Positions 7,849-53,512 of a DNA stretch of 64,000 nt are shown in pieces (position 1 is the stretch's first letter; each line of letters starts with the position of its first letter). The DNA is taken from sequence record MN850622.1, one strand, 5' to 3'. Under the pieces are notes generated by a model, which worked only from the letters and a program-made list of their open reading frames with translations, had not been told where the DNA came from and made no database searches. The position numbers were made by a program, and so were the translations under genes. The stretch comes from Escherichia phage mobillu.

Positions 7849-10800
7849 CTAATTTAACCTGTGGTGGATTCACGGGGTCTCTTGGATTTCCTACATTATC
7901 GATTAACCGTTGTTCAACCAAATCTCTAAATCTAGAGAATGTTGTTCCGGACGCATCAAATAATGGGCTCATCAGTTTACGTCGTTCCGATGGAAGTTGA
8001 CCTTGAAATATGGAGTTATTGTTTTCAGCGTTATAATCTTCAGGCAATGGATAATCTTGACCAGCCATAGGGCCTATTTCATATATCGCTTTACCTGTAA
8101 TAGGGTCAAACTCAACATTTCCTTGTGGGTCTAATTTAGCCACTCGGTCTGCATATTTAGTCGGTAATCCAGAATCCCACTTATAGTTTTTGTATTTATT
8201 AATAATGGTTTCAACATGTTTAAGTGTTAATCCGGTGTTAATAAACATTGTGAGAAGGGTAATTGCGATAAATCCAAATCCAACCGGATGAACAAAACGT
8301 AATACGTCTGATTTCCAACGAGATGATGGAAGTTTAGATTTAATCTTCATTACGTAGTATGCTCTACCACGATTTATGTAATCGATGTTGTTCTGAGAAA
8401 GCTCTTTACCTTTAATACCACGAACAATTTCACCTTCAAAACCAGGGAGTCTTTCAGCTTTAACTTCCTGTCCTTGGATTAAACGTCCTAAGAGGTTGTG
8501 AATTGTTACAGTCCATTGTAATTTACCTTTAGAGTAACTTCTCTCGATATACGTCACATTACAACGTCCTGTCGCGGTGTATATGGTTTGTCCGACCAAA
8601 TCTTCTGTCAACGAATCAGATTCAATGATGATATCATATTCGGTCCCGGAACTAGATTCAATTTCAATTTCAACATCTTCGTTATAAAGCACTTTAAACA
8701 AGAATTTATATGACGCTTCGGTTCCTTTAGTTGAATAGAAGTCATAACTTCTTGATTCAAAGAAACGAGACACTAAATCGCGTTTTTCGGCGTTTAAGTA
8801 AATGTTTCGTTTATAAATCTCGGACCATAAATATTCCCACGCATGTTCTTCTCGCGGATATTGATTTTTAATAAGATTTAAAAGGTTGTTATAATGGGTC
8901 CCATAACCGTCAGAAAGATACTGAATATAAGCCTCGCAGAATGCTTCGAAGTTTGTATTATCTAAAAGATAAGACTCCGGCATCATTGTAGTGAGCAATG
9001 GTCGTAAATCTGGGTCTGCAATACCGTTCTCTTCTACAGGAGTCCATGTGGTATCTTTTTCTTGGTTTTGTAACGATGCTGTTAAGAATATATTAGTAGG
9101 CTTCCAAATTATAGAAACATTATCTCTAACACGATAACTAAAATCATAATAAGAAATAATCTCACCCGATGCTTTATAGAAAATCATGCCGGATGCATAT
9201 TTTTTAAATCCGGTGAAATCTACGTTAGGCATCACTATTGTACAGTCACCGTCCTTCCAATATTCATGAACTTCACGGTCTGAAGAACTAAGTGGATGAT
9301 TCTCAATAACCTTAGTGTAAAGTAAATCAGAATAAATTACAACGGCCTTGTCCGAGTTATTAATCCAACAACGAGTACCAGACTTTCTAGAATAACTAAA
9401 GAATGGCTCAGCATAGTATTCCATTGGTTGTGGAGTGAACGATTCCCATTGAGAGTCTTCAGTTGAAATAAATGACATCATATGATAATGTTTATCAGCC
9501 AACCATTCGCGAGGATACTCATATTTAACAGCACCGATTAAACCGTACTTGACTTGTGTTTTTGGGTCATCAACAATATCCGATTCTAGAAATTTAAAAT
9601 TACTAGATGAAATAGATAACTCAACACCATCAGTAGACATACTGGTGTACCCAGGTTCAATACGACGGCGTTCTTCTTCAGTATTACCAAACACACGTTT
9701 AAATGTGCCAGCATCATGGTCTAGAACGTAAACGCCCTTATCAGCAGAATCAACAATAGGAGTGGTCCTCGGGTCGTCATTAAGATTAACAACTTCGCCG
9801 ATAATCAGTGCAAATATTTTACCGCCAACAGAATCCATTTTATAGCAAACTGCCTTAGGGTTACCTGTGATGTTAAATGTTTCTTGTTCAAACAAACGTT
9901 CGGAATATGTCGGAGATAACGGGTCTGAATCAATAGGGGCATTACTAGTTTTAATAAAACGAACTTTATCTCGAGCAGCAACGTATACATAATCGTCGTT
10001 GCAAACGATAGCTTCTGCAATACGTGATACGTTAGCAGGTAATGATGCGTAGTTACCAAATATTTCTACATCAAATCCTAAATTTAACTGGTCACCAATT
10101 TTAGCAAATGTTATATCTTGAGAACTAAATCTCACATCATCAGCAGACCAACGAACGTCAGTTGATTTACGGCCGTAAAATAATTTATCATACCCAAGAA
10201 CATACGTGGTATAACCTGTCTGGTAATACACTGTTCTTGATACAGGGTACCCTACACGGTCATTAAACAATTTAACCGATTTCCAGGTTTGTCCCTTATC
10301 ATTAGAGACTTTAACCACAGGCTGATATCGTTCAAACAAATAAAGAATTCCTTCGGATTCCATCAAATAAACACGGTTTATATCATGACATACCTGTTGA
10401 ATCGAACCTTGAATTTCATGATACTCATTTTCGCCAATAATGAAATTTTTAATAGATGAAATATCCGCATAAGCAGGGCTAAATTGGAACGATTCATTCA
10501 TTAGAGCTGCCATTATAGTGTCGTTATTAAAATCGACATAAGACATGTTGTTATTTGTAAATTTTTCTCTAATAAAAGTGTTAGCCAATTGCATTTCAAT
10601 CATATGTTGAAATGTATACGCGTTAGTCTGAAATGATTCAAATATTTCGGTATATACCCAATCAGATCTCTCGAAGCCTTCGGCGGCAGTTGATACACGA
10701 ATAATATAAGAAGTTAATGGGTCTAAGCTACTTTCGAACCAGTTGCTATTAGGAGTATATCCTAAATTTATCCATCTGTAGCTGGCAGGTGGAATTATTT

Positions 10801-23406: not shown

Positions 23407-23455
23407 TGTACAAACGCCAAGGATGGTGGTACTATAGACTTATCAACTACAGAGG
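23406..23455 (+). promoter_or_regulatory. PeSL-like early promoter
   Basis: TGTACA -35 variant, 17-bp spacer, TACTAT; downstream arm contains GAGGAG SD. Confidence 0.55.
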
Positions 23456-39210: not shown

Positions 39211-39684
39211 ATGATTATCAATGAAAACTCTTGGCACTTTAAAATTTATGCCGCGTTCAATAGTACATGGAATCGCCCGAAAACGTTGTGTGCTTATTTT
39301 TGGAAAACGTTAATCCCGGTATTGGCTGTTTCAATTATTGGATTTGCGATTTTAGCAGCAGTCACAATTATTGGCCAGGAAATTTTAACTAAATTCTTTG
39401 TTTTTAGCAGTCTATGGACATTAGTTCCGGCCTCAATTGGCGTAGGCATTTTAATGGTAGCAGTCATGGCTTTTATTGCTACCGGGTTGGTAATTGGTCC
39501 GTCTTGGTTGTTAGACAAATATAACGACAGAAAATATTATAAAGAAATTGAGTTCATTGCACAAAACCAAGAACGAATTAAAAATGGACTTGAACCTATT
39601 GAACGTAAGAAATCATTAATAGGTGAATACCTTAAAGCTCGTAAAGAAAAAGTCTGTCCTACTCTTGAATATAAGGCTAAATGA
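39211..39684 (+). CDS. membrane protein (3-4 predicted TM helices)
   Basis: 157 aa with long hydrophobic stretches; stop overlaps next ATG. Confidence 0.6.
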   Translation: MIINENSWHFKIYAAFNSTWNRPKTLCAYFWKTLIPVLAVSIIGFAILAAVTIIGQEILTKFFVFSSLWTLVPASIGVGILMVAVMAFIATGLVIGPSWLLDKYNDRKYYKEIEFIAQNQERIKNGLEPIERKKSLIGEYLKARKEKVCPTLEYKAK

Positions 39685-40670
39685 TGAAAACGATTGTTAA
39701 GGCTTACTTTGGTAGCCACCTTTATGGAACGTCTACTCCTGAATCTGACGTCGATTTTAAAGAAATTTATGTCCCTCATGCTCGTGATATCTTGACCGGT
39801 AACGTTAAAGAACACATGAGCAAGAACACGAATAACACATCTTCTAAGAACACAAAAGACGACGTGGACCATGAGTTGTATAGTCTCAAATATTTCTTTA
39901 AACTAGCTGCGGATGGTGAAACCGTCGCATTAGATATGCTTCACACTCCACAAAGTCTAGTAGTTAAATCTGATTTGCCTGATGTATGGAAGTATATTCA
40001 AGATAACAGGTCTCGTTTCTATACCACTAACATGAAATCTTATTTAGGGTATGTCCGTAAGCAAGCTTCTAAATACGGTGTCAAGGGTTCTCGACTGGCT
40101 GTTCTTCGTCAAGCCCTTAAACGTTCTAATGAATGGGGACAATACTTTGATAATGGTGCAGTAATTCGTTTATCACATATGAAGAATGTTCTGCCTGTAG
40201 GTGAATTTGCTTCATGGGTTGAAACCGAAAACGAGAAAACAGGTAAGCAAACATTCTATAATCTGTTAGACCGTAAATTCCAAGACACATTAACCAATAA
40301 AGAGTTCAATGCCATCCTGGTTAAACTGGAAGAGAACTATGGTGAACGTGCTCGTAAGGCAGAAGCCAACGAAGGTATTGACTGGAAAGCATTGAGTCAT
40401 GCATGTCGTGGTGGACTTCAACTATTGGAAATTTACAAAACCGGCGACCTGGTTTACCCACTTCAGGATGCTCCATTTATTCTCGATGTTAAGCTTGGTA
40501 AACATACGTTTAAAACTGTACAAGAATTCCTAGAAGATATCGTTGACCAAGTTGAACATGCGTCAGAACAAGCCGCTAAGAACGGTATGCAACAAAAAGT
40601 AGATATGAGTTTCTGGGATGATTTCCTTGAGCAAGTCTATCTCGAAAATCATAATTCTTACTATAAATAA
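39681..40670 (+). CDS. Pol-beta superfamily nucleotidyltransferase
   Basis: 329 aa; N-terminal FGSHLYGTSTPESDVDF fits G-S-x(9-13)-D-x-D NTase signature; later acidic residue (ALDML). Confidence 0.7.
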   Translation: MMKTIVKAYFGSHLYGTSTPESDVDFKEIYVPHARDILTGNVKEHMSKNTNNTSSKNTKDDVDHELYSLKYFFKLAADGETVALDMLHTPQSLVVKSDLPDVWKYIQDNRSRFYTTNMKSYLGYVRKQASKYGVKGSRLAVLRQALKRSNEWGQYFDNGAVIRLSHMKNVLPVGEFASWVETENEKTGKQTFYNLLDRKFQDTLTNKEFNAILVKLEENYGERARKAEANEGIDWKALSHACRGGLQLLEIYKTGDLVYPLQDAPFILDVKLGKHTFKTVQEFLEDIVDQVEHASEQAAKNGMQQKVDMSFWDDFLEQVYLENHNSYYK

Positions 40671-40701
40671 ATAGATAAATAACCATTAACTTGAGGTAAA
40701 T

Positions 40702-40968
40702 ATGAAAAAATTAGTAATTGGTTTATTCGCTGTAATGATGGCATTCTCTGTTGGTGCTACCACGGGCGCAGGAGCTGATGGTAACCAGTCTTCTGGGCCT
40801 TCTAACGGTTCGGTAAATGCATCACATTCTCAGGGTATTGAGAATATCAAATCAAGCTATATTAATAGCACGGCCGGACAAGCAACTGAAGCATGGTCAA
40901 AGGGTCGAGTAGTTACTCGCTCTGTATTCTGTGATATGCCTAATTATGTTGCTAAGTGTGATAAGTAA
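40702..40968 (+). CDS. small secreted protein
   Basis: Signal peptide MKKLVIGLFAVMMAFSVGA; Gly/Ser-rich mature part. Confidence 0.6.
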   Translation: MKKLVIGLFAVMMAFSVGATTGAGADGNQSSGPSNGSVNASHSQGIENIKSSYINSTAGQATEAWSKGRVVTRSVFCDMPNYVAKCDK

Positions 40969-40972
40969 ATGT

Positions 40973-40993
40973 GGGGACCTTCGGGTCCCTTTA
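40973..40993 (+). terminator. intrinsic terminator
   Basis: GGGACC-TTCG-GGTCCC then TTTA. Confidence 0.65.
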
Positions 40994-41019
40994 GGGGGTT
41001 AAAATATTTTTAAAAAGTA

Positions 41020-41058
41020 GTGTACATGCTTTTAGGATATGATACTATAGACCTATCG
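41020..41058 (+). promoter_or_regulatory. PeSL-like early promoter
   Basis: TGTACA, TACTAT, inverted repeat around -10; leader nearly identical to the 19948 and 28050 leaders. Confidence 0.6.
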
Positions 41059-41086
41059 AAACGAAATGAGTAAATTGGAGAATAAA

Positions 41087-42067
41087 ATGTTCAACGTTCA
41101 AATCAAAAAAGGTATCTATCGTAATAACGAAATCTCTGGTTCTTATGTTGCCACAAAGACCTGGTTCCCGGCAAAGCTTAATCCTGAATGTTCCCACTTA
41201 GGTGATGGTAAAATTTTCGTTATGATTGATGGATCTGAACGTGGAGTATGGGTCTTCAAATCAGACATCGTAATGGAAGGAGTTGAGACGTCACCAGTTG
41301 CAGTTGTTGAAAGCACTGAAGATATGAAAACTCGTATCAACAAACGCTTTAAAGTAATGAACATGATGACGAATGGCATTATCGATGGCAAAATTCGTTC
41401 ACTCATTATTTCAGGTGCAGCTGGTATTGGTAAGACGTATTCTCTGGATAAAGCACTTAATAATGCTAATGATAATGGTTTCATCAAATACAAAAGCATT
41501 AATGGTAAAATCTCTGGTATTGACCTTTACGAACAACTTTGGCTCAACCGTGATGCAGACAGCGTTCTCTTAATCGATGACGTTGACGTATTCTCAGATA
41601 TGGACATCCTGAACCTTCTTAAAGCAGCATTAGATACCGGAGATAAACGCAAAGTTTGTTGGAGCACTGCGTCATCTTATCTCGAGGATAAGGGTATTGA
41701 TAAAGAATTTGAGTTTGAAGGTACTATCGTTTTCATTACAAACGTTGATATCGATAAAGAGTTAGAACGGGGTTCGAAACTTGCTCCACACCTTCAAGCT
41801 TTAGTATCTCGTTCAGTGTATCTCGACCTTGGAGTACACTCTAATGAAGAGATTATGGTTCGAGTTGAAGATGTAATATTATCTACTGACATGATGCAGA
41901 AACGTGGTCTGACGGATGCAGAAACGTATAAAGCATTGTCCTGGATGAAGGCTAACGTATCTCGTCTTCGCAATGTATCATTACGTACGGCTCTTTATGT
42001 AGCAGATTTTATTTCAACTGATAAAGATGGTTGGGAAGAAATCTCGGAAGTTACTTTACTGAAATAA
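41087..42067 (+). CDS. AAA+/P-loop ATPase
   Basis: Walker A GAAGIGKTY and Walker B VLLIDDVD; about 100-aa N-terminal domain. Confidence 0.7.
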   Translation: MFNVQIKKGIYRNNEISGSYVATKTWFPAKLNPECSHLGDGKIFVMIDGSERGVWVFKSDIVMEGVETSPVAVVESTEDMKTRINKRFKVMNMMTNGIIDGKIRSLIISGAAGIGKTYSLDKALNNANDNGFIKYKSINGKISGIDLYEQLWLNRDADSVLLIDDVDVFSDMDILNLLKAALDTGDKRKVCWSTASSYLEDKGIDKEFEFEGTIVFITNVDIDKELERGSKLAPHLQALVSRSVYLDLGVHSNEEIMVRVEDVILSTDMMQKRGLTDAETYKALSWMKANVSRLRNVSLRTALYVADFISTDKDGWEEISEVTLLK

Positions 42068-42205
42068 GCTTATAGGAAGTTCTGAGGTAACAAAAGCCAT
42101 AAAGATGAATAATCATATGGCTTACCTCAAAGAAGGACACCAGGAACCTACTGAGGGCATAGAAATATTTAAAAATAATGATGTACAAATCAAAGAGGAT
42201 ATGTT

Positions 42206-42493
42206 ATGGATTTTATGCAAAAAATTAAAGCCGCAGTCGAACTCTATGCTCATCGTATGGTTAGTTCTACAATGCAATATAGCGAGGAGGTTCGCCAGGA
42301 CTCTTCCTTGAAAGGAAAAACTAAAGCCTTAATTACCTTAGATCGTTTGCAAAAGAATGCCATAGAGATGCTCCAGTACGACAAGGGTGTATATAAGAAA
42401 GAACAGGAAGAGAAACTTAAATCTGAAAAATTAAAGAAAATCCCGAAGTCGGTTTGGTTCAGTGGAAAAAATACCGAAAAAAGTTTCTTTTAG
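42206..42493 (+). CDS. hypothetical protein
   Basis: 95 aa after AGAGGA SD. Confidence 0.5.
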   Translation: MDFMQKIKAAVELYAHRMVSSTMQYSEEVRQDSSLKGKTKALITLDRLQKNAIEMLQYDKGVYKKEQEEKLKSEKLKKIPKSVWFSGKNTEKSFF

Positions 42494-42495
42494 TT

Positions 42496-42540
42496 GTTTA
42501 CAAGGTCTATGGTTATGTTATTATAGACCTATCAACTACT
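42496..42540 (+). promoter_or_regulatory. PeSL-like early promoter
   Basis: GTTTACA, 17 bp, TATTAT, inverted repeat GGTCTAT/ATAGACC. Confidence 0.55.
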
Positions 42541-42551
42541 GGAGGTAAAAC

Positions 42552-43079
42552 ATGAACGCTAAAGATATTTTCAACCTGGTGAATTATAACGACGGTAAAT
42601 TTAAATCTGAAGCACAAAGCAAGTTCTTTAATGACGTTGCTTATGGTAACGAGATTACCGTGGACGGAGGTCAGATTTTCAAATCTCGCTGGAATTGGAT
42701 TGTTATCATCGATTCAGTTGGAATTGTGGAAGTCTACAAAAACACTAACAAAAAACGTACATTATTCTGGTCTCGTGAAACTAACGAGCAGTACAAAAAG
42801 GATAAAGCATCTCGTTTATCCAAAGTAACCCAGGAAGATATCGAGTTTATCAAGAAAGATATCGAGATGTACGAAAATTTAATTGCTGAAGACCAGGCAG
42901 TACTCGATAAGTTTGATGAAATTAAAGCTTCTCGTGAAATCCCTGACTTCATGAAAGAAACAGTAAACGAACGATACGCTCTCACTTCAGAACGTATTGC
43001 AAACTATACAAAACAGAAAGCAGAACGTATTAGTACTCTTCGGAAATTTGAAGAACGTTTAAAGACGGTTCACGCATAA
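42552..43079 (+). CDS. hypothetical protein with C-terminal coiled coil
   Basis: 175 aa after GGAGG SD. Confidence 0.6.
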   Translation: MNAKDIFNLVNYNDGKFKSEAQSKFFNDVAYGNEITVDGGQIFKSRWNWIVIIDSVGIVEVYKNTNKKRTLFWSRETNEQYKKDKASRLSKVTQEDIEFIKKDIEMYENLIAEDQAVLDKFDEIKASREIPDFMKETVNERYALTSERIANYTKQKAERISTLRKFEERLKTVHA

Positions 43080-43080
43080 A

Positions 43081-43106
43081 CGCTTTACCCAAGGACGGGT
43101 TATAAT
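43081..43106 (+). promoter_or_regulatory. middle-promoter-like (MotA-box-like CGCTTTA + TATAAT)
   Basis: GCTTTA core 13 bp upstream of TATAAT; same CATAAACGCTTTA context as 59205. Confidence 0.45.
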
Positions 43107-43141
43107 GGTTTTGAGTTCCAATTCAATCTGAGGAAATAGTT

Positions 43142-44137
43142 ATGAGCATTACATCTGATGCGGTAAAACATGAAATTAACGGTTTATGTGCTTCACAGAT
43201 TAAAGTGTGGTTTAAAGACCATAACGATCGCAGAGCACTTAATTATGAACAAATTGCTATCCAAGTTCATCAATTACTGGTTAGTAAATTTGATTTTCAT
43301 ATGCCGTCTGAAATCTATACTAATCTGCCGCGAGCACTTATTAAAGCGTGTAAAGGTTATGGAAAATCAATGGCTGATGGAATCTTCAGCGCGCTGAATA
43401 AACTTAACGTTCTGTCGATGATTAACTCTAACAACATCCTGCGTAATCTAGGACGTACTGATTTGTTCGGCCGTGAACAGTGTAAAATGCCTTTGAAATG
43501 GATTGTTGCTCATCTTAACGAGAACCAAACACGTTTTATGGCCGTAACAGCACGCTTACAAATGGGCCTAGATCGTCAGATGAACTTTAAAACTCATCCA
43601 CGTTATTCAGGTTCAACTGACTTTTATAAATGTGAGCTTCAAAAGGTCGGTGGCAAAACCGTCTTAGTAGTTCGTGTAACGTTTGAAGGACGACGTCAAG
43701 GATATTTTGACATAATCGGCTCTGGACTTAAACATTGTGGATTTATCGACGAAGTTGATATCAAGCGAGACGGCGTTGGATACCGTATTGGGTATGTTTG
43801 TACTCTTAAAGAAGAGATTTCAGGACCAGCTCCAGGACTAAAAGACGTTAGATATAAAGACGAGCTCGTTGAAGAAATAAAAGAAGTTGAATATGATATC
43901 AACCAAGAAGATGCTCTTAAAGACCTTATTGATGAACTGAACCAAGACGTTATTCCGGTTCAGAAATTTGAATCAAAACATGCTGAGCAAATCAAATACT
44001 TTGAAGCTTTGATTAACGAACTTAATGTAACTATTCAACAGACTGACGATGAAATCTCACGATTAGCAGGCTTAAACGGTAAAAATAAAACAGAACGAGC
44101 TAATCTTATTCAAGTAGTAAAACTTCTTAAGGAATGA
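43142..44137 (+). CDS. hypothetical protein (about 330 aa, C-terminal coiled coil)
   Basis: ATG after GAGG; first of three tandem, similarly sized genes. Confidence 0.65.
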   Translation: MSITSDAVKHEINGLCASQIKVWFKDHNDRRALNYEQIAIQVHQLLVSKFDFHMPSEIYTNLPRALIKACKGYGKSMADGIFSALNKLNVLSMINSNNILRNLGRTDLFGREQCKMPLKWIVAHLNENQTRFMAVTARLQMGLDRQMNFKTHPRYSGSTDFYKCELQKVGGKTVLVVRVTFEGRRQGYFDIIGSGLKHCGFIDEVDIKRDGVGYRIGYVCTLKEEISGPAPGLKDVRYKDELVEEIKEVEYDINQEDALKDLIDELNQDVIPVQKFESKHAEQIKYFEALINELNVTIQQTDDEISRLAGLNGKNKTERANLIQVVKLLKE

Positions 44138-44166
44138 TGTACAACCAAGGATGGTTGGAGTATAAT
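44137..44166 (+). promoter_or_regulatory. early promoter (repeat copy A)
   Basis: TGTACAACCAAGGATGGTTGGAGTATAAT; palindrome CCAAGGATGGTTGG in spacer. Confidence 0.55.
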
Positions 44167-44192
44167 AAATTTTTCAACATGAGGAATATAAA

Positions 44193-45152
44193 ATGGCTTT
44201 TATTACACGTAGAGAACTTATCAAAGAATTTACCTCGAACGCATATACTCCAGGACCTAATCCTATCCGTATGCCTGTAAAGACTCCTGAAGAGATTGAG
44301 GAAATCTGTTCATATTATGGGATTACTTCTCGTAAGTTTACTCAATTTGAATGCGTTACTAACACACCCGTTAAAGAGTTCATTAAAAATGGCGAGTTCA
44401 GCCGTTTATTGGCCAAACAGAAACTTCGTAATTTTTGTATTGGCGGTGAAGGACAATATTTCGCTAAGCAGTTCCGGAATAACCTTAACAATCTGATGGC
44501 CATTGCTTCTCGTATTCGTCCTCAAGCAATTAACATGAAACATTTGAAATATACTTACGATAAGTTGGAAATCATGGTTATCAGTGAGAACGAGTTCACT
44601 CTCACGTATAAACCTAAGAATGATAACGTTGCTCGTGTATTCCACCAAGCGTTGGAAGTGTTAGGTGATAATATTCACCAGATTAAAGCAATTTATTCTC
44701 GTGAGCTTAATATTATCAACCCTATCAAGAATAAGGGCCATATCGCTATCCAGGCTCGTGTATCTATTGGTAAAAAGGTTCCTGCGCCATGGTGGCACAA
44801 AGACTCCGAATATTATCAAAATCTTAAAAAGGAAAATGCATTGTTTGAAGCATCGCTTACTGGGACCCCAATTGAACAGGCCGAAGTCCTAAGTGCTTAT
44901 TCTACTTCGGGTAAATCAATGTTTAAAGGTTTGCCAAATGTGTGCAAACTGTCTGCAGTAAAACTAAATGTTTCTAATGACCTTCTTCCGGTCGAAGATT
45001 ACCATTACAATCAAATCAAGGCCACTATGGACCAACTGTCTGTTGAACTTGACAAAGCACAAGCTAAGCTTCGTGATGCTCAAAGTGTTGTAACGAATCT
45101 CCAGTTGCAGTATTCTAAACTTTTTAACGCAATGAATGCGTTAAAATCATAA
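44193..45152 (+). CDS. hypothetical protein (319 aa, C-terminal coiled coil)
   Basis: ATG after GAGGAA. Confidence 0.65.
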   Translation: MAFITRRELIKEFTSNAYTPGPNPIRMPVKTPEEIEEICSYYGITSRKFTQFECVTNTPVKEFIKNGEFSRLLAKQKLRNFCIGGEGQYFAKQFRNNLNNLMAIASRIRPQAINMKHLKYTYDKLEIMVISENEFTLTYKPKNDNVARVFHQALEVLGDNIHQIKAIYSRELNIINPIKNKGHIAIQARVSIGKKVPAPWWHKDSEYYQNLKKENALFEASLTGTPIEQAEVLSAYSTSGKSMFKGLPNVCKLSAVKLNVSNDLLPVEDYHYNQIKATMDQLSVELDKAQAKLRDAQSVVTNLQLQYSKLFNAMNALKS

Positions 45153-45156
45153 ATCA

Positions 45157-45186
45157 GTTTACAACCAAGGATGGTTGGAGTATAAT
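45157..45186 (+). promoter_or_regulatory. early promoter (repeat copy B)
   Basis: GTTTACAACCAAGGATGGTTGGAGTATAAT, near-identical to 44137 copy. Confidence 0.6.
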
Positions 45187-45214
45187 GAATTTATCTTAAC
45201 GAGAGGAAAATATT

Positions 45215-46165
45215 ATGACACGTTCACATTACATTGAATACTTTGCAGGTCTTATCGCTAACGTTCATGCCCAACGTGCTTCTGGTGTACTAGGATTTGA
45301 TGTTCCACACCGAGATGTAGTAAGTGGTATTCTTCGAGATTTTGGTACATACGTAGGCCAAGAAAATCATATCTGTAAAGATACTCAAAATGCATATTCT
45401 CATTCATTAGGGACACTGCTTCAATGGTTCAAACGTTCTCGTTTATTATCTTCTACTGTAGCTCGCGATAACATTAAAAACTTTATGAAGCCGAGCTTTA
45501 TTAAATCTGTGACATCTAAAACCGATTTGGTTGAATTCACTATTGTTAATGATGTTAAAAAGACTCATTTGGCTGATTGGTTAACTACCATTCCTGAAAC
45601 TAAATTTGCCGATAAATTTGCTTGTGAATTCAATAACCAAGTGAATATGCTTTTTAAACATTCTCGTAAATTATTCACAGGCGGCGATTCTCGTACAAAT
45701 ACAGTTCATGCTAAAGATTGGGTTACTGCAGTGTTCAAACCAACCGGTAATGGTACCGCATCATTATCAATTGATATTCAGGTTCCTTATTATCACTCAC
45801 GTAATCTCGGCACCATGAAAGCTGAAGAAATTAAGAAGCACAATAAAACCATTCGTTCGCTGTCTTATAAACTTCGCATGATGTTAAGAATCATGGACGT
45901 GGTAGAAATGTATGATGAAACCGAAGATAATGGTTCAATGTTATACAGTTCTCGCATTCAAATTAAGTTGAAGAACCCTAACGAGTATAAGCCTAAGCCT
46001 ATTAAAGAGCCTAAAGCAGAAAAAGTTGATAACTTAAGAGAAGAACGCGAATATCTCAAATCTCGTCTGAAAGAAGTCGAAGCCCAGATTGCAGAACAAA
46101 CTAAATCGTTAAAAGCTCTGAATGCGAAAGCGGATGGTTTACGAAATGCCATTGAGGTGTTATAA
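45215..46165 (+). CDS. hypothetical protein (316 aa, C-terminal coiled coil)
   Basis: ATG after AGAGGAAAA. Confidence 0.65.
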   Translation: MTRSHYIEYFAGLIANVHAQRASGVLGFDVPHRDVVSGILRDFGTYVGQENHICKDTQNAYSHSLGTLLQWFKRSRLLSSTVARDNIKNFMKPSFIKSVTSKTDLVEFTIVNDVKKTHLADWLTTIPETKFADKFACEFNNQVNMLFKHSRKLFTGGDSRTNTVHAKDWVTAVFKPTGNGTASLSIDIQVPYYHSRNLGTMKAEEIKKHNKTIRSLSYKLRMMLRIMDVVEMYDETEDNGSMLYSSRIQIKLKNPNEYKPKPIKEPKAEKVDNLREEREYLKSRLKEVEAQIAEQTKSLKALNAKADGLRNAIEVL

Positions 46166-46470
46166 TGAAACTACGTCTTTTAGAGGATATTGATATGAGC
46201 ACTAATCATGGCTTGGTTAAGTTTATTGACGATAGTTCAAAGATTGAATTTGTTCAGCGAGATAAAATCCACGGTGAAGAAGAGTTTGTTCCTCCGGCAT
46301 GGAACGAAATAATGAAAATGGTTGAACGACGTGAAAATGCTGCCAAATCGGCAGCAAAACATCCATGCCCGGAATGTGGAACTATCCAAGTCCAACTGGT
46401 TAACTGGACAACTGATAACTTGAAATTGAAATGCCGTAAATGCTTCCACAAATTTGAGAGAACATTATAA
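46165..46470 (+). CDS. zinc-ribbon protein
   Basis: CPECG...CRKC pairs; ATGA coupling. Confidence 0.6.
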   Translation: MKLRLLEDIDMSTNHGLVKFIDDSSKIEFVQRDKIHGEEEFVPPAWNEIMKMVERRENAAKSAAKHPCPECGTIQVQLVNWTTDNLKLKCRKCFHKFERTL

Positions 46471-46883
46471 TGAGATATAGCCTTCATTGTTTTATCGCAG
46501 CTTTAGTTTTTGCCATCATTCCATTCATTTGGAACAGCCAGAATACTTACATGGAAACTAAAGTAATTCCTGTGGAGGTAGTGGAATTAATCTCAGGTCA
46601 ATCTACAGGAAAATATTCTAAATTAGAATTTATTGCCGTCTATAAAGATGAGCAAGGACGAGTTTTTGACAGGCGTGTATCGCCATCGTTTTATACGCTT
46701 CTGAATAAAGGTGATACGATAGCTATAGAAATTCGTGAGATGGATATCAAACAAACTACTAAAGATAACTTGATTTGGTTCTTTGGTATGGTGTTGTTGG
46801 TTTCTATCTGTATCACAGGTTTTATTACATGTATTGTATTTGGCGTTGCATATTTAATCGATGAAAGGAAAAATAATGTTTAA
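46470..46883 (+). CDS. membrane protein
   Basis: N- and C-terminal hydrophobic helices. Confidence 0.6.
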   Translation: MRYSLHCFIAALVFAIIPFIWNSQNTYMETKVIPVEVVELISGQSTGKYSKLEFIAVYKDEQGRVFDRRVSPSFYTLLNKGDTIAIEIREMDIKQTTKDNLIWFFGMVLLVSICITGFITCIVFGVAYLIDERKNNV

Positions 46884-47139
46884 AGTGTACGGGTATGACT
46901 CTACTATTCATAAATGCATTTATTGTGATAATGCGAAACGATTGCTGACTGTTAAGAAACAGCCATTCGAATTCATTAATGTTATGCCAGAAAAAGGTGT
47001 TTTTGATGATGAGAAAATTGCTGAGCTTCTGGTTAAGCTTGGACGTGAATCACAAGTCGGATTGACTATGCCTCAAGTGTTTGCTCCTGACGGAAGTCAC
47101 ATTGGTGGATTTGATCAACTGCGAGAATATTTTAAATGA
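46876..47139 (+). CDS. nrdC: glutaredoxin/thioredoxin NrdC
   Basis: MFKVYGYDSTIHKCIYCDNAKRLL...GGFDQLREYFK matches recalled T4 NrdC (87 aa). Confidence 0.92.
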   Translation: MFKVYGYDSTIHKCIYCDNAKRLLTVKKQPFEFINVMPEKGVFDDEKIAELLVKLGRESQVGLTMPQVFAPDGSHIGGFDQLREYFK

Positions 47140-53272: not shown

Positions 53273-53512
53273 ATGGCCCAAGAATTAGATTTTATCAAAT
53301 TCAAAAAACACCTCGACGTTAAAATTGGGGATTCAATTGTTAGGATTGAGTATGACATTTTAACAGATGCTATTACTATTAGTTGTGATGGAAATAGTTT
53401 CAGCTTCGATACAACCGAAAACAAATACCCAATCTATAAAGGCATCTTTGATATGGGTGTTGATATTACTCCACGTGATACAAATTACTTACTTTTCATG
53501 CTTAAAAAATAG
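53273..53512 (+). CDS. hypothetical protein
   Basis: 79 aa after TGAGGAAAA. Confidence 0.55.
   Translation: MAQELDFIKFKKHLDVKIGDSIVRIEYDILTDAITISCDGNSFSFDTTENKYPIYKGIFDMGVDITPRDTNYLLFMLKK

Follow-up and report, generated by a model that had tools for sequence, protein, structure and literature searches.

Among described phage systems, the closest to the genes considered here is nrdC.5 of bacteriophage T4. A T4 clone lacking a block of non-essential genes does not infect ECOR17 or MG1655 carrying Dsr1, a sirtuin (SIR2/NADase), and expression of T4 nrdC.5 restored infection of Dsr1 cells; the same deletion clone remained able to infect MG1655 that has no dsr1 (Srikant, Guegler and Laub 2022; PMC9391042). 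A second point of comparison is the PeSL ('promoter-early stem-loop'), a class of regulatory cassettes found in T4-type phages (Arbiol 2010, PMC2839356; Comeau 2014, PMC4122927). We analysed a 64,000-nucleotide stretch of Escherichia phage mobillu (MN850622.1; hereafter the window) in which three tandem genes at 43142-46165 occupy the region corresponding to the T4 nrdC-mobD block, the second and third each preceded by a copy of one promoter repeat. The explanation that we favour, and hold to be reasonably probable, is that the genes are highly diverged nrdC paralogues forming a counter-defence array, carried in promoter cassettes that recombine at the repeats.

Relationship of the three genes

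A sequence-only reading of the window had described three consecutive open reading frames (ORFs) of 331, 319 and 316 amino acids on the + strand, and these stand as follows.

Gene 1: 43142-44137, + strand, 331 amino acids; nrdC.6-like, PHROG 2257; PF26899 is recorded for its cluster
Gene 2: 44193-45152, + strand, 319 amino acids; nrdC.5-like, Pfam DUF7235 (PF23882), phrog_2351
Gene 3: 45215-46165, + strand, 316 amino acids; nrdC.3 orthologue, PHROG 1435; PF26897 is recorded for its clusters

Profile matches assign gene 1 to phrog_2257 (E = 2e-127), gene 2 to PF23882 (E = 1.6e-124) and phrog_2351 (E = 5e-100), and gene 3 to phrog_1435 (E = 1e-104). In pairwise BLASTP, gene 3 is 55% identical to T4 NrdC.3 (E = 1e-120), gene 1 is 29-33% identical to NrdC.6 (E = 1e-19) and gene 2 is 25% identical to NrdC.5 (E = 2e-11, with ∼ 80% of the length aligned). 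A tblastn search with gene 1 matched genes annotated nrdC.6 in T2, RB51 and Bp7, and the RB69 annotation has nrdC.6, nrdC.5 and nrdC.3 at the same positions. Judged by these matches, gene 3 is a clear NrdC.3 orthologue; gene 1 corresponds to NrdC.6, and gene 2 to NrdC.5, at a distance.

BLASTP among the three window proteins detected no similarity (best E 0.25-2.9), in line with the earlier remark that they are not obviously alike. ORFs of 180-420 amino acids from the nrdC block of 16 T4-like loci fell into three clusters: a joint NrdC.3 and NrdC.4 cluster, NrdC.5, and NrdC.6. The PHROG-annotated T4 record also places nrdC.3 and nrdC.4 together, in phrog 1435. Profile–profile comparison with hhalign joined NrdC.3 to NrdC.4 (97.2%, E = 3e-11), NrdC.4 to NrdC.5 (96.4%, E = 1.4e-9) and NrdC.3 to NrdC.5 (86.6%, E = 4.5e-6), against ≤ 1.5% (E 0.03-0.7) for controls with NrdC.10 and NrdC.11. 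NrdC.6 scored < 1% (E 0.06-0.08) with NrdC.3, NrdC.4 and NrdC.5 taken singly, and 83.4% (E = 8.4e-6) with a merged NrdC.3/4/5 profile over 145 columns of the globular part, where LSRxNAxxILRNY is aligned with LSxxxARxxLxNF and NQRRLLALGARL with FRxxxxxILxxASRL. An exhaustive HMMER search with the NrdC.6 profile recovered four distant full-length proteins of 288-345 amino acids, and this bridging group matches both NrdC.6 (99.1%, E = 1.2e-18) and NrdC.5 (98.0%, E = 1.6e-13). In most matching records its relatives lie at ∼ 46-48 kb, the same map position; they belong to T4-like phages of Enterobacter, Kosakonia, Edwardsiella, Klebsiella and Pectobacterium. We conclude that NrdC.3, NrdC.4, NrdC.5 and NrdC.6 constitute one superfamily and that the three window genes are very diverged paralogues, genes 1 and 3 being related to NrdC.5 at the superfamily level only. 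Databases list three or four separate families, which are here joined into one. The members that we found come from T4-like phages only, with one to four genes per phage among the loci examined; with gene 3 as the anchor, scans of IMG/VR gave just 7 close loci.

Of the two possibilities that the sequence-only reading had left side by side, divergent paralogues are hence supported. The other holds that the three proteins are unrelated cargo, sharing only size and a C-terminal coiled coil and assembled by the same promoter cassette. The lack of BLASTP similarity, the placement of the proteins in three distinct families by Pfam and PHROGs, and the failure of NrdC.6 to match each other family singly would all fit such an origin. 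However, the profile matches fall in the globular N-terminal and middle parts, outside the coiled coil, the bridging family matches NrdC.5 and NrdC.6 at 98-99%, and the structural models of genes 1 and 3 run parallel in secondary structure and have Foldseek neighbours in common. On the profile–profile comparisons and the bridging family we reject unrelated cargo, which we regard as very improbable. A further possibility, three well-conserved and mutually unrelated orthologues of T4 nrdC.x genes, is borne out in so far as the genes are counterparts of the distinct nrdC.6, nrdC.5 and nrdC.3, but two of them are poorly conserved and all are related.

In the AlphaFold models of gene 1 (mean predicted local distance difference test score, pLDDT, of 72) and gene 3, the order of elements is alike: five helices at the N-terminus are followed by a long helix pair and a beta hairpin, then by a helix and a strand, and a linker leads to the C-terminal helix (residues 281-330 in gene 1, 275-315 in gene 3). 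Foldseek searches of BFVD gave the two models E5EYP0, E5E4A2 and A0A4D6BJV0 as common neighbours, and the gene 1 model also matches an NrdC.3-type protein (probability 0.90). The models suggest that the proteins are built alike, with helices making up the N-terminal domain, a small alpha/beta part in the middle and a coiled coil at the C-terminus. A globular N-terminus followed by a coiled coil, proposed earlier for all three proteins, is thus seen in the models of genes 1 and 3, and is in keeping with PDB sequence searches with the family profile, which returned coiled-coil or chance matches only. Pfam and NCBIfam searches gave DUF7235 and weak coiled-coil noise but pointed to no functional domain.

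The window is 99.4% identical to Escherichia phage vB_Eco_mar005P1 (best DNA match; Mosigvirus); NBG1, a related record, is assigned to Mosigvirus, which is the RB69 group of T-even phages. Gene order is nrdC.11, nrdC.10, nrdC.9, nrdC.8, the site of the three genes, then nrdC.2 in the window, RB69, T4, RB3, Bp7, VR25 and ESCO47. T4 nrdC.3-nrdC.6 share with the window genes this site between nrdC.8 and nrdC.2, their size and their architecture; T4, however, has nrdC.4, which the window phage lacks, and the slot between two hairpin promoters is filled by nrdC.4 in T4 but by the nrdC.5-like gene in the window phage. Most flanking genes are 78-92% identical to T4, compared with 33%, 25% and 55% for genes 1, 2 and 3; nrdC.2, nrdC.7 and nrdC.9 in the flanks have also diverged from T4 (35-51% identity). 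The homologues of nrdC.11 (39681-40670; an RlaP-type nucleotidyltransferase) and nrdC.10 (41066-42067; weak P-loop, AAA and STAND NTPase matches) are well kept relative to T4 (78-79%), in contrast to the three studied genes. The label 'thioredoxin' is attached to most nrdC.x genes in public T4-like records, as seen for window 39681-47139 and many GenBank records. Eight of these genes were checked and none gave a thioredoxin domain; the label seems to derive from the names of the genes.

Promoter repeats around gene 2

The sequence-only reading had also reported an almost identical element ahead of the second and third genes. ACAACCAAGGATGGTTGGAGTATAAT (26 nucleotides, nt) is present at just two places in the window, 44141 and 45161 (0 expected, 100 shuffles), and the direct repeat can be followed over 36 nt, of which 34 agree (44140-44175 and 45160-45195). 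Its interpretation as a promoter likewise held: the two copies are the top sigma-70-like matches within 39.5-47.5 kb, and the site equivalent to copy 2 is annotated as a promoter in phage NBG1. Beyond these two copies we found a third, diverged one ahead of gene 1 and a fourth elsewhere in the window.

Repeat copy 1: 44138-44175, + strand; -35 TGTACA (44138-44143), N17, -10 TATAAT (44161-44166); 10/12 match
Hairpin of repeat copy 1: 44142-44157, + strand; CAACCA-AGGA-TGGTTG, with GGAG at 44156-44159
Repeat copy 2: 45158-45195, + strand; -35 TTTACA (45158-45163), N17, -10 TATAAT (45181-45186); 11/12 match
Hairpin of repeat copy 2: 45162-45177, + strand; CAACCA-AGGA-TGGTTG, with GGAG
Middle-type promoter of gene 1 (third copy): 43082-43106, + strand; MotA-box-like GCTTTA (43082-43087), -10 TATAAT (43101-43106)
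Hairpin of the gene 1 promoter: 43087-43100, + strand; ACCC-AAGGAC-GGGT, predicted in the minimum-free-energy fold
Fourth promoter-hairpin element: 23407-23435, + strand; TGTACA, CGCCA-AGGA-TGGTG (one G-U pair), -10 TACTAT

The repeat promoters are followed by a GAGGAA Shine-Dalgarno sequence and then ATG. Upstream of gene 1, cGCTTTA, 13 nt and TATAAT fit a MotA box ∼ 12 bp upstream of the -10, and the element is the counterpart of CGCTTTATACCAAGGATGGTATAAT upstream of T4 nrdC.7, where PnrdC.7 is an experimentally mapped MotA-dependent middle promoter with its start site at 53325 (PMC2988021, Table 1). Gene 1 is accordingly assigned, on sequence, a MotA-type middle promoter, and genes 2 and 3 early sigma-70-type promoters. 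In T4, nrdC.7 lies upstream of nrdC.6; in Mosigvirus its homologue (46470-46883; phrog_2547, a predicted membrane protein) is found between nrdC.2 and nrdC, and the PnrdC.7-type promoter has kept its place 5′ of the nrdC.6-like gene. The fourth element, distant from the nrdC block, lies 5′ of a short ORF.

The idea that a cassette had brought in these genes gained support from related phages, in which the two repeats bound a presence/absence polymorphism of gene 2. In Mosigvirus FL31, gene 2 and one repeat are missing, and the junction combines the left flank of copy 1 with the right flank of copy 2. A 161-nt junction probe identified this empty site, with the crossover inside the repeat, in 21/155 records (FL31, ESCO47 and 19 others). 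ESCO47 has a single element upstream of nrdC.3 (L013:∼7990-8036), whose arms CAACCA and CGGATG pair incompletely; the former, on the left, matches the Mosigvirus type and the latter, on the right, the Dhakavirus type, and this hybrid hairpin suggests, from its sequence, a crossover in the loop.

We propose that each gene is a self-contained expression cassette with its own promoter and hairpin. The 26-nt identity of the repeats would provide a substrate for homologous recombination, removing or inserting gene 2 along with one repeat, and a circle carrying one promoter copy would, once integrated, leave identical flanking repeats. We interpret the event at the repeats as modular shuffling in the style of the PeSLs. 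Like them, the window elements are intergenic composites of an early promoter and a stem-loop in a hyperplastic region, with copies on either side of variable ORFs; an ORF is lost or gained when neighbouring copies recombine, and the crossover may plausibly fall within the loop. The early promoters of the window also fit the T4/PST PeSL consensus TTTACW-N17-TAYWAT. In contrast to a PeSL, whose stem-loop lies upstream of the -35 as a terminator, the window stem-loop lies within the promoter spacer; with 4-8 bp it is short, its AGGA loop is invariant, it has no U-tract, and it also occurs within a MotA-type middle promoter. The shuffling reading would carry the PeSL model over to RB69-like phages, and to promoters with the hairpin inside them, with the empty-site genomes as a natural example of gene swapping at promoter repeats.

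A related arrangement was seen on an IMG/VR contig (L096:1331-2866) from a T4-like dda-dexA region, where the same hairpin promoter (CAACCA or CATCCA-AGGA-...GAGTATAAT) lies 5′ of two of three tandem paralogous ORFs of 139-186 amino acids (BLASTP 1e-9 to 5e-29). A second tandem family, located in another variable region, is thus served by the cassette as well.

The repeats might instead be two good early promoters kept alike by selection for promoter strength or by gene conversion, with gene loss incidental and no dedicated mobility. Both copies are near-consensus promoters, short homology suffices for T4 recombination according to the PeSL paper, and there is no recombinase or mini-circle evidence for this phage. 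However, the T4 copies around the same slot are far less alike, so that promoter function does not need 26/26 identity. Identical flanking repeats are also the expected scar of single-crossover integration, the same element flanks other tandem genes on the contig described above, and the ESCO47 hybrid hairpin points to repeated exchange at the site. We therefore consider selection or gene conversion alone unlikely.

Possible role in counter-defence

Gene 2 belongs to the same Pfam family as the anti-Dsr1 protein T4 NrdC.5 and, like it, is an early gene in a non-essential, deletable region, although identity between the two is just 25%. The RB69 reference nrdC.5 (L010:6976-7878) encodes 300 amino acids and is frameshifted near the C-terminus; its tail matches an alternative-frame ORF of the window (44968-45093), and it consequently lacks the coiled coil. 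Either the truncation is genuine or the sequence contains an error.

For all three window genes, the anti-Dsr1 activity of T4 NrdC.5 together with extreme divergence, variable copy number and presence/absence makes a set of diversified counter-defence proteins the most likely interpretation. Each paralogue would probably bind a different host immunity protein or variant, the coiled coil serving for oligomerization or target binding. DSAD1, an SPbeta phage protein, inhibits Dsr2, another defence of the SIR2-type NADase class. By analogy of role alone, this may hint that NrdC.5-type proteins act by direct binding; our literature search found no paper giving the mechanism of NrdC.5.

The genes could alternatively have a host-takeover or housekeeping role, for instance in RNA or nucleoid remodelling. 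They are expressed before replication, their fold is uninformative, and deletion of tk to nrdC.2 in T4 abolishes host-mRNA destabilization, an effect for which the review names no responsible gene (PMC3014915). Yet one family member is directly anti-Dsr1 and its loss is tolerated in MG1655 without dsr1, and the extreme divergence, copy-number variation and presence/absence among close relatives follow the pattern of an arms race. A takeover or housekeeping role seems to us rather improbable.

Several points weigh against the explanation favoured here, that of diverged counter-defence paralogues in recombining cassettes. The NrdC.6 link is the least secure, as the merged profile and the bridging group are what it depends on. 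For gene 3 the model is poor (pLDDT 54), because its alignment is shallow, with T4-type NrdC.4 and NrdC.5 missing from it, and the loose arrangement of the domains keeps Foldseek template modelling (TM) scores low (0.2-0.5). The known phenotype is limited to T4 NrdC.5, the distant counterpart of gene 2. Deletion accounts for identical repeats as well as integration does, and the empty site fits both directions. Lastly, one defining PeSL feature fails, because the hairpin lies in the promoter spacer and is not terminator-like.

If NrdC.3-NrdC.6 are one family, the NrdC.5-Dsr1 phenotype can serve as a hypothesis for as many as four tandem genes in each of many T4-like phages, with the prediction that each paralogue or allele neutralizes a different defence variant. 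Since the genes are already annotated in RB69 and T4, this refines known biology and does not describe a new system. What is added is a single superfamily that includes the anti-Dsr1 protein, repeats that bound a gene polymorphism, and a covarying hairpin in the promoter spacer. The practical value is modest, in that widespread 'thioredoxin' labels are corrected.

The hairpin in the promoter spacer

A stem of 4-8 bp around an AGGA loop is present in all copies of the element, from six T-even phages and one IMG/VR T4-like contig. Across 13 distinct variants the motif C-A-A-G-G-A-N-G is invariant (C9, A10, A11, G12, G13, A14, G16), whereas the outer stem covaries, one position taking A-U, U-A, C-G and G-C. 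Paired cells amount to 89.7% against 64.6% in shuffles, and the covariation score is 0.59 against 0.14, a value reached by 0/500 shuffles and approached by no slid control (≤ 0.18). Selection bias is limited because most variants were collected as upstream regions before stems were considered; a collection-wide scan for CCAAGGATGG...TATAAT gave mostly chance matches and was used for a few T4-like variants only. Folding energies of the intergenic RNAs are no better than those of shuffles (z -0.9 to +0.9), so the case for the hairpin rests on covariation. Rfam gave no covariance-model match up to E = 1 within 42400-46600.

Two other interpretations of the hairpin were dropped. An intrinsic terminator was rejected, as there is no U-tract and a terminator scan lists no site at 43087-43100, 44142-44157 or 45162-45177. 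A small upstream ORF within the hairpin (ATG GTT GGA GTA TAA) is not conserved among the copies.

Transcripts begun at the proximal start site would not include the hairpin, which lies upstream of that site, and it would be carried by read-through RNA only. In such RNA it resembles a CsrA/RsmA site, for which selection by SELEX gave RUACARGGAUGU and for which the CsrB repeats are CAGGA(U/A/C)G (PMC7652899). GGA is displayed in the loop of a short hairpin that fits CANGGANG, the invariant C-A-A-G-G-A-N-G falls on conserved positions of the CsrB repeat, and in the T4 nrdC.4 copy ACAAGGAUGU matches the SELEX core in full. In the three window genes the Shine-Dalgarno sequence, ∼ 30 nt downstream, supplies a second GGA. 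Stems of 5-8 bp, however, exceed those of most SELEX ligands, and the motif is also plainly Shine-Dalgarno-like; a text search of the literature found no paper linking CsrA to T4 gene regulation. The 3′ arm of the early-type copies runs into GGAGUAUAAU, which is near the strong RegB site GGAGRAYARAA.

We offer only tentatively, and with considerable doubt, the proposal that the hairpin is a functional RNA signal on read-through transcripts, a candidate CsrA-type site with RegB-like GGAG-UAUAAU cleavage in some copies, that would insulate each cassette post-transcriptionally. A host or phage RNA-binding protein would then silence or cut transcripts arriving from upstream, and transcripts from the cassette's own promoter, which do not contain the hairpin, would be translated. 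Over both strands of the window CANGGANG occurs 29 times against 16.8 ± 3.9 expected, mostly as coding CATGGA(A/T)G; this excess is probably a codon-usage effect and no sign of a regulatory motif.

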